Assembly: GCA_021513715.1 (NCBI GenBank)
Contig: CP084167.1
Coordinates: 1,696,001 to 1,760,000, forward strand
Direction of reading: 5' to 3'
DNA: 64,000 bases
From: Candidatus Heimdallarchaeum endolithica
GTDB lineage: Archaea > Asgardarchaeota > Heimdallarchaeia > Heimdallarchaeales > Heimdallarchaeaceae
Shown here: positions 19,717 through 56,550 of the stretch, one piece after another
Layout: every line of letters begins with the position of its first letter
How positions within the stretch are numbered: the stretch's first letter is position 1
Program-made: the position numbers and the translations under genes
The notes under the pieces: generated by a model
What the model saw: the letters and a program-made list of their open reading frames with translations, nothing else
Told to the model about the DNA's origin: nothing
Databases searched by the model: none

Positions 19717-20682
19717 ATGCCTCAAAAAATAGAAGATGTCTATGGAAATATAAAACAGTATATTAATAAAACGCCGGTAATGACATCTACAACACTAAAT
19801 AAATTAACTGAATCAAGTTGCTTTTTAAAGTGTGAGAATTTCCAAAAGATGGGTGCTTTCAAAATTAGGGGGGCAGTTAATGCTTTACTAAATTTAACTA
19901 AAAAACAAAAAGATAAAGGGGTAATAACACACAGTTCTGGAAATCATGCTCAAGCTTTATCACTTGCAGCTTCATTTTTTAATGTTAAAGCTACAATTGT
20001 TATGCCTGAAAATGCACCAAAGGTTAAAATTGAAGCAACAAGAAATTACGGTGGAGAAGTTATTTTTTGTGGGAACAAACCATTAGATAGAGAAAAGAAA
20101 ACAGAAGAATTAATTAAGCAACACGATTATACATTAATTCATCCTTCAAATAATTGGAACATTATTCGTGGAGCAGGAACAGCATCCTATGAATTGATAC
20201 ATGAGACCCGAGATCTAGATTATATTTTTGCTCCTGTGGGAGGAGGAGGGCTATTAAGTGGAACATCTTTAGCAGTTAAAGAATTATCTGAAAAAACAAA
20301 GGTGATTGGTGTTGAACCAGAAAACGCTGACGATGCATTTAGGTCAATAAGAGATAATAGGATATATCCATCAACAAATCCTAATACAATAGCAGATGGC
20401 CTTAGAACTTCATTAGGAAATATCACTTTTCCTATAATCAGAGACAATGTTCATAAAATCATTCTAGTATCAGAAGAGGAGATAGTCAAAGCTATGGAGT
20501 TTCTATGGACTCGAATGAAATTAGTTGTTGAGCCCTCAGGTGCTGTTTCATTAGCAGGATTATTAAAACAAAAAGAAAGTATAAGAAACAAACGTGTAGG
20601 AGCAATCATTTCAGGTGGAAATATTGATTTGACCGATTTCTTTGCCAAATTCAAGGGAGTGGAAAACAATTCAAAACAGTGA
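19717..20682 (+). CDS. PLP-dependent serine/threonine dehydratase (serine racemase-like)
   Basis: FKIRGA, SSGNHAQ, VGGGGL and SGGN motifs. Confidence 0.92.
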   Translation: MPQKIEDVYGNIKQYINKTPVMTSTTLNKLTESSCFLKCENFQKMGAFKIRGAVNALLNLTKKQKDKGVITHSSGNHAQALSLAASFFNVKATIVMPENAPKVKIEATRNYGGEVIFCGNKPLDREKKTEELIKQHDYTLIHPSNNWNIIRGAGTASYELIHETRDLDYIFAPVGGGGLLSGTSLAVKELSEKTKVIGVEPENADDAFRSIRDNRIYPSTNPNTIADGLRTSLGNITFPIIRDNVHKIILVSEEEIVKAMEFLWTRMKLVVEPSGAVSLAGLLKQKESIRNKRVGAIISGGNIDLTDFFAKFKGVENNSKQ

Positions 20683-22208
20683 AAGTTATGGAAGAATCTT
20701 CAAAAAAGCCAATTGCATTTATACCTACACCAAAAGAGATAGCTTCTCTAATGGTTTCTTTGATAACAAAATCTAAAACTGACAGTATATTAGATCCAGG
20801 ATGTGGAAAAGGTATTTTCATTGAATGTTTAAAGGAACAAAACTTCACCAACATAACAGGGGTAGAATTAAACAAAGAGTTGTACAATTTTTGTAAAAAT
20901 AAATTATCGCAAAGTATTATCATTAACAACGATTTTCTAGATTTAAGCGAAAATAACAAATTTGATGTAATCATTGGTAACCCTCCTTATACCCATTATA
21001 ACTCTCTTCCTACAAGTATGAAAGAAAAAGTTTATTCAATTACGAAAACAAGAGAAACAGATATCTATTATGCTTTTATCATAAAAGCTGTAAAATTATT
21101 GAAGGATGAAGGCGAACTTATTTTTATTGTACCATATAGCTTTTTTTATAATACATTTGCAAAAACAGTAAGAGAGATTCTTGCAAAAAATGGATTCTTT
21201 GAACTAATAATAGATTTAGACGAAGTAAATTTATTTGAAGGGGAGTTGCCAGAAACAATAATATTTAAGTTTAAGAAGGTAAAGGAGAAAAGAGATACAA
21301 TCATTCTAAAAATTAAAACAAGACTAGCAAAACCAGCACGAGTCACTGAAAAAGCATTAGAGAGTTTAGAAAAAAGGAGAGAAAATGAACTATTTTCCTA
21401 TTTCATAAAAAAGTTTGATTATAAATCAGAAACATGGTCAACTTTCCCATATATTGAGGTCAGTTTTTTTAACAGACTATCAGAATTAGCTTTTGTTGGA
21501 GTAGGAATGGTTTCAGGTTATGATAAAGCCTTTAGACTAGAAGAAAAAACAATCAAATTACTAAATGATGAAGAACAAAAAAGAGTTTTTCCATTTGTAA
21601 AAGGAGAAAACTGTAAGGGTTATTTTATTCAGGGATGCGTATATTATTTCCTACTTGATAGCAGCATAAAATCAGAGGAAGAGCTAAGTAAAAAATATCC
21701 AAATTTTTATTCTATAATTTTGTCTTCTAAAGAGAATATGATTAAAAGGTATTTACCTAAAAACAGAAAATGGTTTCATTGGCAAGCTCTTAGAAACTAT
21801 GAAACATACAGAAAGAGATTAGATGCGCCCAAGATTTTTGTTCCTACATTAGATAGAAGTAAGATAAACCGTTTCAGTCTTACCTATGAGAAATTCTTTC
21901 CTTCAGGAGATGTTATTACAATCATTCCTTACAAAGATGTTGATCCTTTTTTTCTTCTAGGTTATTTGAATAGTGACTTCTTTAGGAGATATTATTTTTC
22001 ATATGGAGGAAAAAGAGGAAACAGAGTTTCGTATACACAACGGTTATTATCCAACGCTAAAATACCCAAATTTTCTGAGAAAATAAGAAAAATAATTTCA
22101 TCTGAATCCAAAAAGATCTTTAATCAAAAGTCATTTCAAGATTGTAGGGAAAAAATAGAAAAAACCATACTCAAATCTTTCGAGGAAAATCTTTTTGATT
22201 CAGTATAG
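20679..22208 (+). CDS. N6-adenine DNA methyltransferase (gamma class, TaqI/Eco57I-like), no adjacent nuclease
   Basis: Motif I DPGCGKG, motif IV GNPPY and C-terminal TRD with FLLGYLNS. Confidence 0.9.
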   Translation: MKVMEESSKKPIAFIPTPKEIASLMVSLITKSKTDSILDPGCGKGIFIECLKEQNFTNITGVELNKELYNFCKNKLSQSIIINNDFLDLSENNKFDVIIGNPPYTHYNSLPTSMKEKVYSITKTRETDIYYAFIIKAVKLLKDEGELIFIVPYSFFYNTFAKTVREILAKNGFFELIIDLDEVNLFEGELPETIIFKFKKVKEKRDTIILKIKTRLAKPARVTEKALESLEKRRENELFSYFIKKFDYKSETWSTFPYIEVSFFNRLSELAFVGVGMVSGYDKAFRLEEKTIKLLNDEEQKRVFPFVKGENCKGYFIQGCVYYFLLDSSIKSEEELSKKYPNFYSIILSSKENMIKRYLPKNRKWFHWQALRNYETYRKRLDAPKIFVPTLDRSKINRFSLTYEKFFPSGDVITIIPYKDVDPFFLLGYLNSDFFRRYYFSYGGKRGNRVSYTQRLLSNAKIPKFSEKIRKIISSESKKIFNQKSFQDCREKIEKTILKSFEENLFDSV

Positions 22209-22241: not shown

Positions 22242-22883
22242 ATGACCTCTAGAACTTCAACAAACGGTCTATTTTTAGTCATTGAAGGAATCGATGGTGT
22301 AGGTAAAACTACTCAAGCGAAGAAGCTAGTTGAGTTCCTAAAGTCCAAGAAATTAAAAGCCGAATATACTACTGAGCCCACTCATTGGAGTATTTATGGA
22401 AAAAAATTGAGAGAAAGTTTTTTTGCTCCAGAAAGATTATCAGTTGAAGAAGAATTTAGACTTTTTTTGGAAGATAGAAAAGAACATATTGCGAAGGAGG
22501 TTTTACCTCTTATAGAGCAAGGAATAATAGTTGTATGTGACAGGTATTATTTTTCATCTGCTGCATATCAGGGATCTAGAGGATTAGATTGGAAATATAT
22601 TTTACAAGAAAATATGAAAGTTGTTTTTTCTCCAGACATAACATTCTTAATTGACATCCCTGTAGAAAAAGCAATTGAAAGAATTGCTAATGGACGAGCA
22701 GGAAAAATTAATACATTTGAAAAAAGAGAAAATCTCATCAAAGTCAGGAAAATCTATCAAGAAATTGCCCAAGAGTTCAGTGAGTTAATAACAGTTATAG
22801 ACGGAAATTACAGTATAGACACAGTTCACGAGTTAATAATTGAACACTTAAAACCTAAACTCTTTGAAAAAAACTTAATTTAG
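22242..22883 (+). CDS. tmk: Thymidylate kinase
   Basis: EGIDGVGKTT and CDRYYFSSAAYQG motifs. Confidence 0.95.
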   Translation: MTSRTSTNGLFLVIEGIDGVGKTTQAKKLVEFLKSKKLKAEYTTEPTHWSIYGKKLRESFFAPERLSVEEEFRLFLEDRKEHIAKEVLPLIEQGIIVVCDRYYFSSAAYQGSRGLDWKYILQENMKVVFSPDITFLIDIPVEKAIERIANGRAGKINTFEKRENLIKVRKIYQEIAQEFSELITVIDGNYSIDTVHELIIEHLKPKLFEKNLI

Positions 22884-22936: not shown

Positions 22937-23094
22937 TTTTTAAATAAAAAGGAATGATGCTATTTGAGGACTAATGAGTATAGGTGAATTTGTTCCGAAC
23001 TTGCAGTAGCAACATTGTTTTACTTAGGAGTAGGAACAACACCTCAAAGAGTCTTTTTTTCTATGAGAAAAAATATGAGAAGGATGTGAAATAG
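22937..23094 (+). promoter_or_regulatory. proS leader: TATA, hairpin, Pro-sensing uORF and +1-frame coupling ORF
   Basis: TTTTTAAA at 22937-22944; stems TTTGAGG/CCTCAAA and TTGTTCC/GGAACAA; +1 frame open to TAG at 23092-23094, abutting the proS ATG. Confidence 0.75.
22974..23009 (+). CDS. Leader peptide MSIGEFVPNLQ
   Basis: ATG AGT ATA GGT GAA TTT GTT CCG AAC TTG CAG TAG; Pro codon at the same position as the cognate codon in the thrS and leuS leaders. Confidence 0.7.
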   Translation: MSIGEFVPNLQ

Positions 23095-24531
23095 ATGTCA
23101 GTTTTTACAAAGAAAAAGGATGAACAATTCATGGCATGGTATCTTGATGTCATTCGAAGAGCAGAAATTGTAGATACTCGAACAGGAGTCAAAGGTGCTA
23201 ATGTACTCATGAGCAATGGATATGAAATTTGGAAAAGGATGCAAAACATCTTGGATGAGAAATTCTATGGAACCAATCATAAAACTATGATATTCCCTTT
23301 ACTAATTCCTGAAAAATTCTTAATGATGGAAAAAGAACACTTTGCAGGATTCGTTCCAGAAGTAGCTCTCGTTACTCACGCAGGAGAAAAAAAATTAGAA
23401 GAAAATTATGCTTTAAGGCCAACATCTGAAACTATAATGTATCACTTGTATAGTCAATGGATCAGAAGTTACACAGATCTACCTTTAAAAGTAAATCAAT
23501 GGTGCAATATTATTAGAATTGACACAAAAGACACTAGACCTTTACTTCGTGACAGAGAATTCTACTGGACAGAGGCCCACACGTGCCATGAAACAGCAGA
23601 AGAAGCAGAAGAACAAGTGAAAGAATCAATGTGGATTTATTCAACATTCTTTGATGAATGTTGCTTACCTTATTTAGTACTCAAGCGTCCAAAACATGAC
23701 ACTTTTCCGGGAGCAGAATATAGCGTAGCTTATGATTGTCCTCTCCCAGATGGAAAAAGTCTCCAAATAGGAACTACACACAATCTCGCACAAGGATTTA
23801 GCAAAGTATTTAAAATCAAATTTCAGAAAGCTGATGGAAAACATGATTTTGCTTATCAAACTTGTTATGGATTATCCACGAGAGTTATAGCTGCCGTAAT
23901 TGGTGTTCATGGTGATGATCGAGGGTTAATTTTACCTCCATATCTAGCACCAACCCAAGTAGCTATTATTCCAATTATATTCAAAAGCAAAGAAGAAAAA
24001 GTGCAAAAGATTAGTAAAGAATTATATGAGAAAATCAAGTTGTCTGGTATAAGGGTAATATTAGATGACGGGCCTAAAACTAGTGGTTGGAAATTTAATG
24101 AATATGAGCTTCGAGGGGTACCAATAAGAATAGAAGTAGGCCCACGAGATGTAGAAAAAGGTTCTGTGGTTATTGTTCGTCGTGATACAAAGGAAAAGAT
24201 CGAAGTCAAAAATGAAGATATGATAGAAGAGATACAAAAATTGTTTAAAGCAATTACTATAGAATTAAAACAAAGAGCCAAGGCCTTATTGAAAAAATCT
24301 GTTTCAACACTAGAAACTTTAGAAGAAATTGAAGAGAAATTCAGCACAAAAAAACCTGGTTTCATCAGAACAAACTGGTGCGGAAATAAGAAATGTGCTG
24401 AATATGTAAAAGAAAACTTCCGAGCTAATATTCTTGGTACAAAGTATGGTGAAGTAGAGCAAGTTTTTGGAGATTGCCCTGTTTGCGGTGAAAAAGCTAA
24501 ACATGTTGTGTATCTTTCAAGAACTTACTAG
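23095..24531 (+). CDS. proS: Prolyl-tRNA synthetase, archaeal/eukaryotic type
   Basis: LRPTSET, REFYWTEAHT, QIGTTHNL and C-terminal zinc domain ending SRTY. Confidence 0.97.
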   Translation: MSVFTKKKDEQFMAWYLDVIRRAEIVDTRTGVKGANVLMSNGYEIWKRMQNILDEKFYGTNHKTMIFPLLIPEKFLMMEKEHFAGFVPEVALVTHAGEKKLEENYALRPTSETIMYHLYSQWIRSYTDLPLKVNQWCNIIRIDTKDTRPLLRDREFYWTEAHTCHETAEEAEEQVKESMWIYSTFFDECCLPYLVLKRPKHDTFPGAEYSVAYDCPLPDGKSLQIGTTHNLAQGFSKVFKIKFQKADGKHDFAYQTCYGLSTRVIAAVIGVHGDDRGLILPPYLAPTQVAIIPIIFKSKEEKVQKISKELYEKIKLSGIRVILDDGPKTSGWKFNEYELRGVPIRIEVGPRDVEKGSVVIVRRDTKEKIEVKNEDMIEEIQKLFKAITIELKQRAKALLKKSVSTLETLEEIEEKFSTKKPGFIRTNWCGNKKCAEYVKENFRANILGTKYGEVEQVFGDCPVCGEKAKHVVYLSRTY

Positions 24532-24639: not shown

Positions 24640-25020
24640 ATGTCAATAAGTTTACCACCAGAAAAGAAAAAAGAATTAATTAAAATATTAAAACAAATTT
24701 CACAAGGTTGTGAATTGGAAGCTTTAGCAGTTGTAACAGATGAGGGAATTAAAGTAGCTTTTTTTGCTGAGAAAAGTGCAGACCCTGATTTACTCAGTGC
24801 TGTAAGCTCTGCTGTTCTTTCCACCGGAGAGATGGTTACAAAACAGCTTTCTCACGGTTTTTTGGAACAAGTATTAATCCGTGGTGCTAAAGGATTTACA
24901 ATCTTATCTAATTTAGATAACTATCTTTTAATTGGAGCTTCTAAGGATTTACACAGCGTTGGTTTAGCTATACAAGTAATAAGAAGACATAGCCCCACAA
25001 TCTCAGAATTGTTAAACTAA
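24640..25020 (+). CDS. Roadblock/LC7 domain protein
   Basis: ALAVVTDEG...LLSAVSSAVLSTGE...LEQVLIRGAKG. Confidence 0.88.
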   Translation: MSISLPPEKKKELIKILKQISQGCELEALAVVTDEGIKVAFFAEKSADPDLLSAVSSAVLSTGEMVTKQLSHGFLEQVLIRGAKGFTILSNLDNYLLIGASKDLHSVGLAIQVIRRHSPTISELLN

Positions 25021-25056: not shown

Positions 25057-26058
25057 TTAATAAAAGAGGAAACTCTTCTCTATTTCCTCTTGGCTAAAAC
25101 CAGCATTAATTCCAACAATTATTCTAATAAGGTCAGAGATTTCTGCATACTTCATTTCAAAAAAGGCAATTAATATCTCAATATCAGTTGAGGATTTTTG
25201 ACGAAATATTTTTTTCCATTTTTTGATTTGGAAACGTTCAACAGCAAATTCTATGTCATGTAAAGGGATATCATCTTTTCCCATGTAGTCAGCAAATATT
25301 CTTTTGTATACTCCAAAGTTGTACATGCTTAAGACTTCAGGAATAGAATTTGATTCTAATGCTTTAGCAATAAATGTTGTTGGTTTAATATAACGATAGG
25401 GAGCAATCCCAAGATTAATACATCTACACACCCATATTATATTCTTCAAATTAACGTATATATCAAATTCACGGGAAATTATAGGGAGAATATAATATTC
25501 AAACTGATCTATTGCTGCGTCAACTGGTACAAAACGTCCTGTTTTCTGAAATTCAGAATAACCTTGTTCTAGTAATTGTTTAAAAGTTTGAATTTTTTCT
25601 GACTTAATGATATCAGCAATTGATGAGGAGGAAGTAAGAACTTTTTCATAATATTCATAGCTATATTTTCCCACAGGAGAAACTCTTTCTAATATCTCTT
25701 CATGAGGTTGTTTCATAAAAAGTCCACGGAGAATATATCGGATATTCTCTGCATGAAATCGTTGAGAATGAAGATCGATTATTTTTTTTGCTCTACTTGA
25801 ACCTTGTTTATAAAAAGTGCTTACAGTTCGAGCAAAATGATTTTTTAATTGTTTTGCAACTTCTGGCATCTCTGTAACGAAATTTATATCTTGAACGATT
25901 GAACCATATTGTGTTTGCCGAAAAGCAGCTTGTAGTTCTTTAAGATTAGAGGAGGATAGAAGAAAATTTATCTGGCTTCGGCTAAGTACCTTGCCTATTA
26001 TTCCATGAGCTCTTCCATATAGATATCCATCTCCTGAGAACATTTTATTCACCAGCAA
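25057..26058 (-). CDS. atpC: V/A-type ATPase subunit C (AC39/d family)
   Basis: GYLYGRAHG, ENIRYILRG and EISDLIRIIVG; overlaps the subunit I stop. Confidence 0.8.
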   Translation of the reverse strand: MLVNKMFSGDGYLYGRAHGIIGKVLSRSQINFLLSSSNLKELQAAFRQTQYGSIVQDINFVTEMPEVAKQLKNHFARTVSTFYKQGSSRAKKIIDLHSQRFHAENIRYILRGLFMKQPHEEILERVSPVGKYSYEYYEKVLTSSSSIADIIKSEKIQTFKQLLEQGYSEFQKTGRFVPVDAAIDQFEYYILPIISREFDIYVNLKNIIWVCRCINLGIAPYRYIKPTTFIAKALESNSIPEVLSMYNFGVYKRIFADYMGKDDIPLHDIEFAVERFQIKKWKKIFRQKSSTDIEILIAFFEMKYAEISDLIRIIVGINAGFSQEEIEKSFLFY

Positions 26059-29000
26059 CAGTTGTGTATTGAATAAATTTGGTTTTCTCTAGTAATGGAG
26101 TATATTGGACACCTTCTCCTTTGTAGAATTTGGAAAAGAATTCTACCCAATGCAACCTCAGTGTCTGTAAGAATGAGAACATTCCTTCAATAGGTACAAT
26201 TACAACAAGTCCCCAAACAATGCCAACAAGCCAATAAATCCAAGAGGAAGCTAAAGCAGAGACGTTATGAGTATCAACACCAGCTAAAATATATGGAAGA
26301 CCACTCAAAATTGCATGGACTAGTAACATAGCTAAAATACGGCTAAAGGATAGTGTATTAGAGAATAGAGCAATGAGATGGTCTATAGCTTCCATGATCC
26401 CTTCTGTTCCTTCATGGAGATATTCGAAGAGGAAAACTAGAGGAATTGAAACTAAGGCAATAATTGTAAATATTGTAGAATAGGGTTTCGGTATACTAGG
26501 AAGTGCATTTCCTCCAATAAGTCGTGAAGTAGCGCCAGCACCCATTAAATTATACAAAACTGCAAAAAGTCCTACGTAAAAAATAGAAAGTATAATTGGA
26601 GAAACCCATGAAGCAACACCGTGACCATATTTTTTGTTTTCTATAAATCTTAACCAAATACCAAGTTGTATAAGTACAAAACCGATAGAAATGGAAAACA
26701 ATAAGAATAAGGGCACTTCTTTTGTAGGCTCAATTAAAGGCAACCATTCAATATGCAAAACATTTTCATAAATATGAGGTAGAAATACTTCATCACCTAG
26801 AAGTGCTCCAAATAGGAAACCGAAGATAATTGAAGAAAAACCAGAAAGAGTAAGTAACTCAGAACCTTTATACAGAAATCCAGACATTGATTCATCAGGT
26901 TCAATATTCTTTTTGTTTTTCTTATAAGTTAGAAACAATCCAATCAAGAAGAGAAGTATTCCATGTCCCACATCAGCGAACATTATACCAAATATCAAGG
27001 GAAAAGTAAATTGTATAATTTTGAAGGGGTCAACTTCATGAGTTGAAGGGATACCCATTCCATCAACTATTCCTCGAAAAACTTTAGTAACCTTATTTCC
27101 ATGTTTTGTCATAGAAGGATTCGTTAATGGTACTTTTTGTTTTTCAGACATAGTTATTGGAAAATCCAATTTTTCGGTTTCTTTCTTTAAGTCTTCAACC
27201 TTATCTTTAGGAACCCAACCCCAAATTGTTGTAGTAGTTTCATCAGTTTTACATTTTTCTTCTGTTTCCAACCTTTTAATTTCTGTTTCTATTAACTCTT
27301 CTAGTGCGAAGATTTTGTCTTCTACTTTCTCCCTAATTTCATCCAATTCATGTTCTTTATGTTCTATTTCAGTCTGAAGATTCGTGAGCTGACTTTCAAT
27401 AGATTCTGAAGATATCATGCTATAGTCAATAGATAACAGCTCAAAGGAATATTCTTCTAGAATTTGTTGTATAGACTTCTTATAGTCTATTAGAGACAAT
27501 ATATAGACAAAGACTGTGTCACTTTTTTCTGGTTGATCAACCTCAATGAAAACTAATTGCCCATCAGAAACTTCATTTAGGAAAAACTTTACAGCCTTAA
27601 CATTCTTTTTTGGGATATTCCCCAAAAAGGTGCAAGTTTCAAAATCTGGATCATCCAAGTATGGTTTAACATCAGAGCTTAAATAGGAATAAATAGGAAT
27701 GTATGTTTTTAATTCTGTTTCCTTCGCTTTTAATTCTTTAAGTTCGGAACTAAGATTTTCTATTTTTTCTCCATAATCTGCAATAAATTGCTCAACAAAA
27801 GATATAGCTTCATCATAGTTATCTTTTACAGCAATCTTAGAATCAGATATTGCTGGAGGAATAGATAATCCAAGGGCTTGTTTGTATCTGCTAATTTTGG
27901 AAGATAGTAAAGTTAAATTCTGTCTTTTTTGTTTTATGTCGTTTAAAATATCTTCTGACTGTCTTCCTATCTTCTCTTGATGAAGGATACCAGTGTTATG
28001 AATAAAGGAGATTAACTTACGTGTGTGCTCCTTTGGGACTTCCATTTTAACAAACTCTACATCCTTTGGAAATAAAGCTCCTCCCTTACTGTTACCTAAA
28101 TGATGATAAGGAGGAATTTCTTTTTCAATTGTTTTTTCTTCTTTCAAAGTCAAAGAACCACGATCCTTGGAAATTTTTTTAGATTTTTTATATTTCAGAG
28201 GAACATCCCTCAATTGAGTGAGTTTAACAGGAAAAGGAAGCTCTTTGAGTTCCTTTTCGAGAATAAGATAATCATTGGGTTTAATCCAACCCCAAAGGGT
28301 AAAATTAGTTTCAGTTGTTCGACCCTGTTCTAGAATATCAAATAATTCAAGCATGAGATTAATAGAAGTAAGAAAATGCAAAAGAGTCTCACGATGTTCA
28401 TCACGCAATTCTGAAATTTGAGATAAAATTTCATCGTGCTTTTCGTGCAGAAAGTCATGTACGTTAGCTACTGTAAGCTTGCTAGTTTCTTCATCACTGA
28501 ACATGTCGGCAAAAACAGAAAGCTCAAAATCTATTGAGGAAAAATAGAAATCTTCAAGAATAGTCGAAACCTCATCTTGATATTCTTGAGGGGTGAGAAT
28601 AAAAACCAAACGAAAATCAGGGTCAGATGATTCAATACTCCAAAAGTAATAAAGACCTTTAGTTATCTCATCGATATAGAAGGAGATAACTTCCTCATAC
28701 GAATGATGAATTTCTCCAACGATAGAAAAGGTGGAAGGTCCAGGAGAAAGTAAATCTAAAGAGATATCAGCATTCTTAAATTTATGCCGAAAATAATGAA
28801 GTTTATCAGCAATTAGATGTTTCTTTGTTAAAGAACGATTTTCTTCAAAAAGAGAGATATAAGAAGTTTCATGTGTGTCTAAGAAAGATTTTAGTTCGGA
28901 GAGAAATCTAGAAGCATCAAAAACATCAGAGTAGTTTTTTTCCGAATATAAATAAACATTAGAAAGATCTAGATCTAGTTCTTGTGAAATGGTAGTAAAA

Positions 29001-29173
29001 CGCTTTAACAAATCAGAAAAAAGCTGGCGATTATCTTCAATTTTAGCTAATTCTGAAGGAGATTGAGTATCAATTTGAACAAAATCAAAACAATCTAAAT
29101 AATGTAATTTGGATACAAGAAGAAGGGAGTCGGAGGGTGACACCTGAACCTTTGAAAGTACTCTTTTTGCCAT
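26045..29173 (-). CDS. atpI: V/A-type ATPase subunit I (a) with duplicated soluble N-terminal domain
   Basis: FGIMFADVGHG, SNTLSFSRILA (essential Arg) and LRLHWVEFFSKFY; two WGW-ending N-domains. ATG at 29173 has a GGTGA SD. Confidence 0.9.
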   Translation of the reverse strand: MAKRVLSKVQVSPSDSLLLVSKLHYLDCFDFVQIDTQSPSELAKIEDNRQLFSDLLKRFTTISQELDLDLSNVYLYSEKNYSDVFDASRFLSELKSFLDTHETSYISLFEENRSLTKKHLIADKLHYFRHKFKNADISLDLLSPGPSTFSIVGEIHHSYEEVISFYIDEITKGLYYFWSIESSDPDFRLVFILTPQEYQDEVSTILEDFYFSSIDFELSVFADMFSDEETSKLTVANVHDFLHEKHDEILSQISELRDEHRETLLHFLTSINLMLELFDILEQGRTTETNFTLWGWIKPNDYLILEKELKELPFPVKLTQLRDVPLKYKKSKKISKDRGSLTLKEEKTIEKEIPPYHHLGNSKGGALFPKDVEFVKMEVPKEHTRKLISFIHNTGILHQEKIGRQSEDILNDIKQKRQNLTLLSSKISRYKQALGLSIPPAISDSKIAVKDNYDEAISFVEQFIADYGEKIENLSSELKELKAKETELKTYIPIYSYLSSDVKPYLDDPDFETCTFLGNIPKKNVKAVKFFLNEVSDGQLVFIEVDQPEKSDTVFVYILSLIDYKKSIQQILEEYSFELLSIDYSMISSESIESQLTNLQTEIEHKEHELDEIREKVEDKIFALEELIETEIKRLETEEKCKTDETTTTIWGWVPKDKVEDLKKETEKLDFPITMSEKQKVPLTNPSMTKHGNKVTKVFRGIVDGMGIPSTHEVDPFKIIQFTFPLIFGIMFADVGHGILLFLIGLFLTYKKNKKNIEPDESMSGFLYKGSELLTLSGFSSIIFGFLFGALLGDEVFLPHIYENVLHIEWLPLIEPTKEVPLFLLFSISIGFVLIQLGIWLRFIENKKYGHGVASWVSPIILSIFYVGLFAVLYNLMGAGATSRLIGGNALPSIPKPYSTIFTIIALVSIPLVFLFEYLHEGTEGIMEAIDHLIALFSNTLSFSRILAMLLVHAILSGLPYILAGVDTHNVSALASSWIYWLVGIVWGLVVIVPIEGMFSFLQTLRLHWVEFFSKFYKGEGVQYTPLLEKTKFIQYTTVAGE

Positions 29174-29658
29174 TAATTTCTCACCAGAATAGTAAGCACG
29201 ATAGTTTAACAAAAAAAAAGAAGAACAATTTTAAAATCTTCCTACTGAACATAAGACAAAAAAGATAGTGATCTTATAACTAAAAAATATGAGTAAATAT
29301 TGGAGAAGAAACAAGAAAGAAAAGAATGAACTACAAAAACAAAGAAGAGAGTTAAAAAATTAAAAAAGAGATTTGAAAAAAAGAATTGTTTGGTTTAAAA
29401 ATCAGTGAAATTTTTAAATTTTATTCGAGAATAATTTATTTTAAATGGAAAAACAGTAAAAAAAGAGAAATAATAACAAATATGCAAATAATCCAAAAAC
29501 AAAAAATGGAAGATGAATTCATTTAAAAAGAATGACCTAAGAATAACAAAAAGTTTAATAACTTTCTAAAGGTAACTAAGGTCAGTAACCAAATAGGTTA
29601 GATTTGTAAAGACAAGTCGAAAAAAAATTGAAAAAACCAAACAATAGGTGAAAAATTT

Positions 29659-35019: not shown

Positions 35020-35144
35020 TTTTCATCTTTTGAGGACAATGAATCCTGGTGAATATGAAACAATACAGTAAAATGCTTTCTTTTGGTTTAGTAGTTTATC
35101 TTTGTCCTCTTGGGAAAAAATGTTTTAAGGTGGAAAGATGGTAG
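35002..35144 (+). promoter_or_regulatory. thrS leader: TATA, hairpin, Thr-sensing uORF and +1-frame coupling ORF
   Basis: TTTTTTATA at 35002-35010; stem GAGGACAA (35032-35039) with TTGTCCTC (35102-35109); +1 frame open to TAG at 35142-35144, overlapping the thrS start. Confidence 0.75.
35039..35071 (+). CDS. Leader peptide MNPGEYETIQ
   Basis: ATG AAT CCT GGT GAA TAT GAA ACA ATA CAG TAA; Thr codon at the conserved position. Confidence 0.7.
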   Translation: MNPGEYETIQ

Positions 35145-56319: not shown

Positions 56320-56550
56320 TTTTACACCTCAATTCTGGAATAAAGAGCTTTTCTTTTCTATTGTAAATTACAGTTGCAATAAAACATGGTTCCATTATAA
56401 ATTTACTGTAAAAAGATTCTTTTCTAAAAATTCGGGAAACCTTATATCCAGTAACTATGTTAATAGAATAATTGTTTTCCAAGAAGAACATAGTCACCTT
56501 TCATCTTCTGGTCTCCTAAAAACAAAAAGGAGATATTAGTTAAAAAATTT
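56312..56550 (-). promoter_or_regulatory. leuS leader: TATA, hairpins, Leu-sensing uORF and +1-frame coupling ORF
   Basis: TTTTTTAA near 56547-56540; stems GGAGACC/GGTTTCC and GGTGACTATGTT/AACATAGTTACT; +1 frame (track ORF 56312..56497) ends in a TAG just past the leuS ATG. Confidence 0.75.
56460..56504 (-). CDS. Leader peptide MKGDYVLLGKQLFY
   Basis: ATG AAA GGT GAC TAT GTT CTT CTT GGA AAA CAA TTA TTC TAT TAA; tandem Leu codons at the conserved position. Confidence 0.7.
   Translation of the reverse strand: MKGDYVLLGKQLFY

Follow-up and report, generated by a model that had tools for sequence, protein, structure and literature searches.

A codon-sensing reading-frame cassette upstream of synthetase genes in Asgard archaea and Bathyarchaeia: a candidate for control by hungry-codon frameshifting

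In the window (the whole 64,000-nucleotide stretch analysed here), a short leader region separates tmk (22242-22883) from proS (23095-24531), the latter encoding an archaeal/eukaryote-type prolyl-tRNA synthetase (ProRS) of 478 amino acids (TIGR00408, 574 bits; cut-off 437). The genome that holds the window, G000, comprises 3,326,783 bases in one contig, and that of a sister species 3.08 Mb; below, f1-f25 denote family groups and L numbers individual loci. All features of the leader are on the forward strand. A TATA-like motif at 22937-22946, which aligns without gaps in f1, is followed by an upstream ORF (uORF) of 11 codons plus TAG (22974-23009). Inside this uORF are a GGTGA resembling a Shine-Dalgarno (SD) motif (22983-22987), a predicted slip site, GTT-C (22992-22995), at which the P-site tRNA could re-pair one base forward, and the putative sensor, a CCG proline codon (22995-22997) that would stand in the A site and is the rarest Pro codon in G000; the frame-0 stop at 23007-23009 is four codons past it. 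From 22996 the +1 frame forms a bridge of 32 codons, closed by a TAG at 23092-23094 that abuts the in-frame proS ATG, and a weak SD-like site precedes the gene at 23082-23089, where most relatives have GGTGA. An inner hairpin (22990-23039; arms 22990-22996 and 23033-23039) would cover the slip site, an outer stem is predicted to pair 22963-22969, which holds a GAGG just 5′ of the uORF, with 23042-23048, and a T7 tract lies at 23054-23060. Each position that a sequence-only reading of this DNA had given for the uORF, the CCG codon, the +1 frame, the stems and the T7 tract proved correct when re-checked. Nearby in the window are a 509-residue adenine methyltransferase-like ORF 5′ of tmk (20679-22208, + strand; no adjacent nuclease in the ORF list), a 126-residue ORF past proS that looks roadblock/LC7-like by eye (24640-25020, + strand; no NCBIfam match at 1e-10) and, at 26045-29212 on the - strand, an A/V-ATPase subunit I-like ORF of ~1050 residues, far above the usual length.

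Taken alone, the G000 leader does not go beyond chance in its fold, its open frames or its T7 tract. The folding z-score on the + strand is -1.3 to -2.0 for this sequence by itself, the -1 frame is likewise open, to -8, and so falls little short of the +1 frame, and non-coding DNA of this genome has frequent T7 runs (0.18 per 100 nt per strand). A single-sequence fold and T tract of this kind are unremarkable, and to that extent would fit an arrangement that arose by chance in AT-rich intergenic DNA. A search of the genome for repeats found the leader to be single-copy, and with no second copy in G000 a repeat or MITE reading was dropped; SECIS, C/D and H/ACA RNAs, ideas based on motifs, were set aside as the conserved part is the reading frame, and Rfam returned no relevant family for the leader at E up to 10.

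Comparison with relatives gives a different weight to the arrangement. We found the Pro cassette, consisting in order of a promoter-proximal uORF, an SD-like GGTGA, a slippery NTT, a CCN sensor and an early stop, before proS at 49 loci in seven Asgard families and Bathyarchaeia. Read in codons, the orthologous leaders share GGT-GAN, one intervening codon, NTT and CCN, with a stop soon after. Between the sensor and a point 20 nt 5′ of the proS start, these loci contain 130 stop codons in frame 0 and 81 in the -1 frame, but 0 in the +1 frame, which is open in 49/49 cassettes against 11.5/49 expected from shuffles; a conservative product of probabilities across 8 lineages is 3e-5. The locus counts overstate independence because the loci are related, the set was drawn with a pattern that required TT-CC and thus had the NTT P-site codon built in, and for 30 of the 49 the proS start codon was picked near the +1 stop. 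A pattern blind to the sensor codon recovered 19 order-level proS loci with CCN, plus one off-site match, and the +1 frame reaches the proS start in all 19. Wider sampling added f5 (same class), f10 and f16 (other Asgard families) and Bathyarchaeia, and seven metagenome matches to the cassette motif likewise have ProRS downstream. The proposal that a Pro-sensing uORF carries a +1 frame ending at the proS start is thus supported by the cassettes of all 49 loci, with both the Pro codon and the open +1 frame, on whose conservation the sequence-only reading had staked its case, kept outside G000.

The pattern of variation within the cassette points to what is being selected. The sensor position makes use of each of the four Pro codons (CCG 23, CCA 13, CCT 11, CCC 2), the synonymous variation that the sequence-only reading had proposed looking for; in f1 leaders the sensor is invariably CCG, 3% of the Pro codons of G000, and nearly all the uORFs before proS have a single Pro codon. 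By contrast with this freedom, the Gly codon of the cassette is GGT in 41/49 cases (GGT makes up 32% of G000 Gly codons), which points to a role for this codon at the nucleotide level, and the GGTGA that contains it is complementary to the 3′ end of the G000 16S rRNA. The distance from uORF to proS takes every one of the three phases, and the peptide encoded by the bridge shows no conservation across the 49 loci, suggesting that selection acts on the openness of whichever frame the uORF sets. The exact abutment of TAG and ATG, which the sequence-only reading had singled out, is present in G000 and incidental: in relatives the +1 stop falls between -19 and +26 relative to the proS start, often as an ATGA overlap.

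The distribution of the Pro cassette is patchy. We found none before proS in f6-f8, f11-f15, f17-f21 or f23-f25 (1-5 samples per family), in ~70 bacterial and euryarchaeal proS leaders searched or in most Thermoproteota sampled. Two f22 proS loci, L166 and L415, have a variant with SD, TTG, ATT and CCA, the +1 frame of L166 closing at +5 relative to the start, and are possibly another chassis. Many genomes of the same order as G000 (loci L023-L025 and L027-L030, mostly genus g4) encode a divergent ProRS (~39% identity, ~500 amino acids) and have no cassette that we could find, which suggests that the gene was replaced and its leader lost.

The Pro element is, judging from sequence comparison, one member of a system that serves several synthetases. 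A genome scan identified two further cassettes in the window: a Thr cassette (35039-35071, + strand) with an ACA sensor (35060-35062) before thrS (35138), its +1 stop at +4 of the start, and a Leu cassette (56460-56504, - strand) with a CTT sensor (56486-56484) before leuS (start 56319), its +1 stop at 56314-56312. Reading all G000 synthetase leaders revealed two more outside the window, a +1-type Ile cassette with an ATT sensor before ileS (G000:C1 1827538, - strand) and a -1-type Phe cassette with a TTT sensor before pheS alpha (G000:C1 1562369, + strand). In relatives, the Thr sensor is ACA at all 19 loci and the +1 frame reaches the thrS start in 19/19; the Ile sensor is ATT at 19 loci, with the ileS start reached in 18/19; and the Leu sensor is CTN at 33 loci (CT being fixed by the search pattern), with the leuS start reached in 33/33, some of these uORFs carrying two Leu codons. 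For Phe, the sensor is TTY at 27 of 28 loci and the frame that reaches pheS is -1 (27/28) rather than +1 (0/28); at L133 both the sensor codon and the open frame have been lost. The pheS cassettes have their SD ~13 nt upstream, and this spacing together with the open -1 frame agrees with the known polarity of SD effects, in which 3 nt favours +1 and 9-14 nt favours -1 shifting (PMC5009743). We also considered pheS as a +1 type read through an upstream NTG frame; the last codon of that frame is not Phe in 7/28 and some loci have no start for it, so that a -1 shift out of the TTG-GAA-TTY frame is the better fit. The NTG frame is often conserved all the same, and the NTG itself, 5 nt 5′ of the TTG, is a second potential start conserved in most of the pheS leaders L131-L159 and L377-L384.

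Searches that left the sensor unspecified support the link between codon and gene. Across the whole of G000 such a scan gave 8 matches, five of them at these synthetases and three with neither SD nor TATA, and in five other genomes it gave 12, all of them cognate and six of them new. These include a single His case (L240, hisS of genome G044), where a CAT sensor is followed at once by a stop and the +1 frame runs as far as the start of hisS. Cognate sensors are thus seen on six synthetase types, and one upstream type of chassis bears different sensors on different genes. No cassette was found by these patterns, in the genomes examined, before the Val, Arg, Glu/Gln, Asp/Asn, Tyr, Trp, Gly, Ser, Lys, Met, Cys or Ala synthetases. 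At four g4 leuS loci (L072, L074, L075 and L086) an upstream gene appears to have taken the place of the cassette, with L075 retaining the 3′ part of the leader. The P-site codon tracks the first base of the sensor, being NTT before C or T and NAA before A (Thr and most Ile, apart from a few f3 ileS with TTT), as +1 re-pairing requires, and TTT-C and AAA-A would re-pair perfectly. With conservation across eight lineages, cognate codons on six synthetase types and a +1 frame free of stops, the comparative sequences refute a chance origin of the Pro leader, and we give that explanation practically no weight. The sequence-only reading had recognised the Pro sensor, while the internal SD-like motif, the slippery P-site codon and the multi-synthetase context were missing from its description.

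In some relatives the shifted frame does not stop beside the gene; it is the gene. In seven Bathyarchaeia ileS loci (L547, L548, L550, L588, L593, L594 and L616), the body of IleRS lies in the +1 frame and the N-terminus of the enzyme starts directly after the Ile codon of a short ORF1, in a prfB-like layout. To judge from these reading frames, synthesis of the fused IleRS probably needs a frameshift, and the annotated GTG starts of the seven genes may be wrong. Further fusions occur in leuS (L088, L111, L553 and L555) and pheS (L152).

Direct initiation in the +1 frame would need no frameshift. A GTG inside GGTGA (22984-22986 in G000) is in the +1 frame and open, and in several of the fused Bathyarchaeia ileS genes it is the sole early in-frame start; it could open a second uORF in the +1 frame that competes with the first. 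This GTG lies 13-14 nt from the upstream SD, against a mode of 7-9, and it is absent from the leuS, ileS, f5 proS, two Bathyarchaeia proS and pheS chassis, where the frame is open all the same. Direct initiation would also leave the cognate codon without a role, and we regard it as very improbable.

The position of the promoter is consistent with translation of the uORF. A TATA-like motif is found 34-47 nt 5′ of the uORF start in 48/49 Pro cassettes, at a distance fixed in each lineage. Over G000 as a whole, the TATA peak for SD-less lead genes is 27-30 nt 5′ of the ATG, which suggests that many mRNAs of this organism are leaderless. Counting this interval from the box at 22937-22939 predicts transcription to start at 22964-22969, ~5-10 nt 5′ of 22974, so by this calibration the start falls upstream of the uORF, as the sequence-only reading had presupposed.

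The RNA structures fare less uniformly. In nine f1 leaders, 87.5% of cells in the inner stem are paired, compared with 34-56% in slid controls; with one compensatory pair, and with 34 of 500 shuffles scoring as high, the covariation of this stem, a check that the sequence-only reading had proposed, is modest. Different helices occupy the position of the inner hairpin in f4, f10 and Bathyarchaeia, most of them not significant singly, and a hairpin overlapping the cassette is, in these alignments, conserved within lineages. The outer stem is partly kept, as TGAG/CTCA-type pairing in most f1 leaders and by means of two G-U wobbles in the sister species. The GAA/AGUA internal loop that had been likened to a loop E is absent beyond the sister species. 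Nor does the T7 tract, proposed as an attenuating terminator, behave as a conserved element, and such a role is unsupported: it is T6 in the sister species, and elsewhere the longest run varies from 2 to 8 T and in its place; a search of the leader for intrinsic terminators gave no match.

These structures bear on two further explanations. In a classical attenuator, an in-frame stall at CCG would switch the RNA structure and so expose the proS start or prevent termination; the short leader ORF with its cognate codon suggests this, as do the lineage-conserved hairpins overlapping the cassette. Such a stall would leave unexplained the stop-free +1 (for Phe, -1) frame, the P-site rule and the fused ileS genes, there is one sensor codon rather than a tandem run, and in admittedly crude folding predictions the accessibility of the proS start scarcely changes when the region of the stalled ribosome is removed (0.54 vs 0.48, f1), on which we rejected a switch that sequesters the ribosome-binding site. 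We consider stalling attenuation improbable. Somewhat easier to entertain, while still unlikely, is a transcriptional output, in which a shifted ribosome covers the leader and blocks termination by FttA/aCPSF1 or at a U tract, and proS initiates independently; it amounts to the terminator proposal of the sequence-only reading with no fixed terminator. A +1 frame that stays open as far as the start is equally compatible with this, many leaders have runs of 5-8 T, G000 encodes FttA/aCPSF1 (TIGR03675, 901 bits), so that an untranslated leader may undergo factor-dependent termination, and archaeal polarity has been ascribed to FttA (PMC12548453). Against it, the U tract is not conserved (most f10 leaders and several of f3 have 2-4 T), and the frequent ATGA overlaps, with the stop at +1, and the direct fusions point to a translational hand-over; the two outputs could also act together. 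A second aCPSF1-like match in G000, at G000:C1 3093544-3095097, has six internal stops and is perhaps a broken or split paralog.

We favour a reading in which hungry-codon frameshifting serves as a readout of tRNA charging and carries ribosomes to the proS start, raising ProRS synthesis, and we put its probability at roughly three in four. Sequence comparison establishes the layout, its conservation, the cognate codon and the open +1 frame; the dynamics that follow are our proposal. Transcription would start a few bases 5′ of the uORF, and ribosomes would initiate there. With ample Pro-tRNA, a ribosome would decode CCG, stop at 23007-23009 and leave ~85 nt before proS. When Pro-tRNA is scarce it would pause with an empty A site, a state in which +1 shifting is established (PMC12719033), and the P-site tRNA would slip from GTT to TTC, aided by pairing of GGTGA with 16S rRNA. 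The shifted ribosome would then read the bridge frame, stop beside the proS start and reinitiate there or, in some relatives, read straight on into the enzyme, and the extra ProRS would restore charging, giving negative feedback. Ribosome cover may also protect the leader against termination by FttA/aCPSF1, and the hairpins would probably damp ribosome loading on the uORF, which is the least supported step.

Several details weigh on this proposal in either direction. In archaea, translational coupling operates when the upstream stop is within ~30 nt of the downstream start (PMC6728339, PMC12548453), a distance found in the 49 loci, and these spacings count for a hand-over to proS. Re-pairing from GTT to TTC gives a first-position mismatch for tRNA-Val, which counts against the slip. 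GGTGA lies 4 nt 5′ of the P-site codon, or 3 nt when counted from the hexamer, and in the anti-SD register it is near the distance used for initiation (mode 5 in G000); its role as a stimulator is only putative because this spacing is less compressed than that of prfB. Uncoupled initiation is possible because the synthetase genes retain an SD and start of their own. For the wider system, we consider it likely that in Asgard archaea and Bathyarchaeia one cognate codon triggers programmed hungry-codon frameshifting that autoregulates several synthetases, with an essential IleRS of Bathyarchaeia made only by frameshifting.

The cassette resembles several known systems in part. In the T-box riboswitch, one specifier codon per synthetase gene is used by an RNA that binds tRNA directly; the job and the one-codon logic are the same, whereas the cassette would be read by the ribosome and has no Rfam match. 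In bacterial leader-peptide attenuators such as pheM-pheST and the thrL type, cognate codons in the leader ORF let the ribosome gauge charged tRNA and control a synthetase or biosynthetic gene, and here too a short leader ORF with a cognate codon would control a synthetase. Attenuators work with codon runs, with stalling and with terminator/antiterminator hairpins, whereas the cassette has one codon, an open shifted frame and no conserved terminator. Frameshifting in pheL was judged incidental (PMC5009743). prfB shares the short ORF1, the internal SD, a pyrimidine-rich slippery P-site codon able to re-pair in +1 and, on our reading, a slow A-site triplet decoded according to the level of the downstream gene product, and negative feedback (PMC5009743); the TAT-CTT run is also present in some relatives of the cassette. 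Unlike prfB, whose A-site triplet is a UGA stop, the cassette has there a sense codon cognate to the synthetase, it would sense charged tRNA, it would as a rule yield a disposable bridge ORF to which the gene is coupled, and it forms an archaeal multi-gene set with +1 and -1 versions and a less compressed SD in the anti-SD register. Nor is proS a trans-frame product (a TAG precedes its ATG), although the prfB layout is matched in the Bathyarchaeia ileS and some leuS and pheS genes. In ermCL, a ketolide-induced shift in the leader also sends ribosomes into the spacer and turns the downstream gene on (PMC5009743), but the trigger is an antibiotic, the shift unfolds an inhibitory structure and no cognate codon is involved. 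The C. elegans zip-2 oORF is likewise proposed to undergo a +1 shift upon elongation defects, including synthetase knock-down (PMC11831180); it differs as a eukaryotic, general stress sensor for a transcription factor, with no fixed cognate codon or SD. In its mode of action the cassette would thus resemble prfB and in its task the T-box, yet it belongs with neither of these, nor with the attenuators.

To our knowledge, little has been established about how synthetase levels in archaea are adjusted to tRNA charging. In the literature outside subscription journals, we found no description of such frameshift control of synthetases in archaea; a 2016 review knew of no productive use of hungry-codon frameshifting (PMC5009743), and for programmed -1 frameshifting in archaea one reported case appears in a 2021 review (PMC8211752). 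If our reading is true, some Bathyarchaeia ileS genes carry wrongly annotated starts, and the cassette would be a compact, modular amino-acid sensor that is retuned by swapping one codon. It would be a ribosome-read counterpart of the T-box that puts starvation frameshifting to productive use, and a new regulatory class in the lineage closest to eukaryotes.
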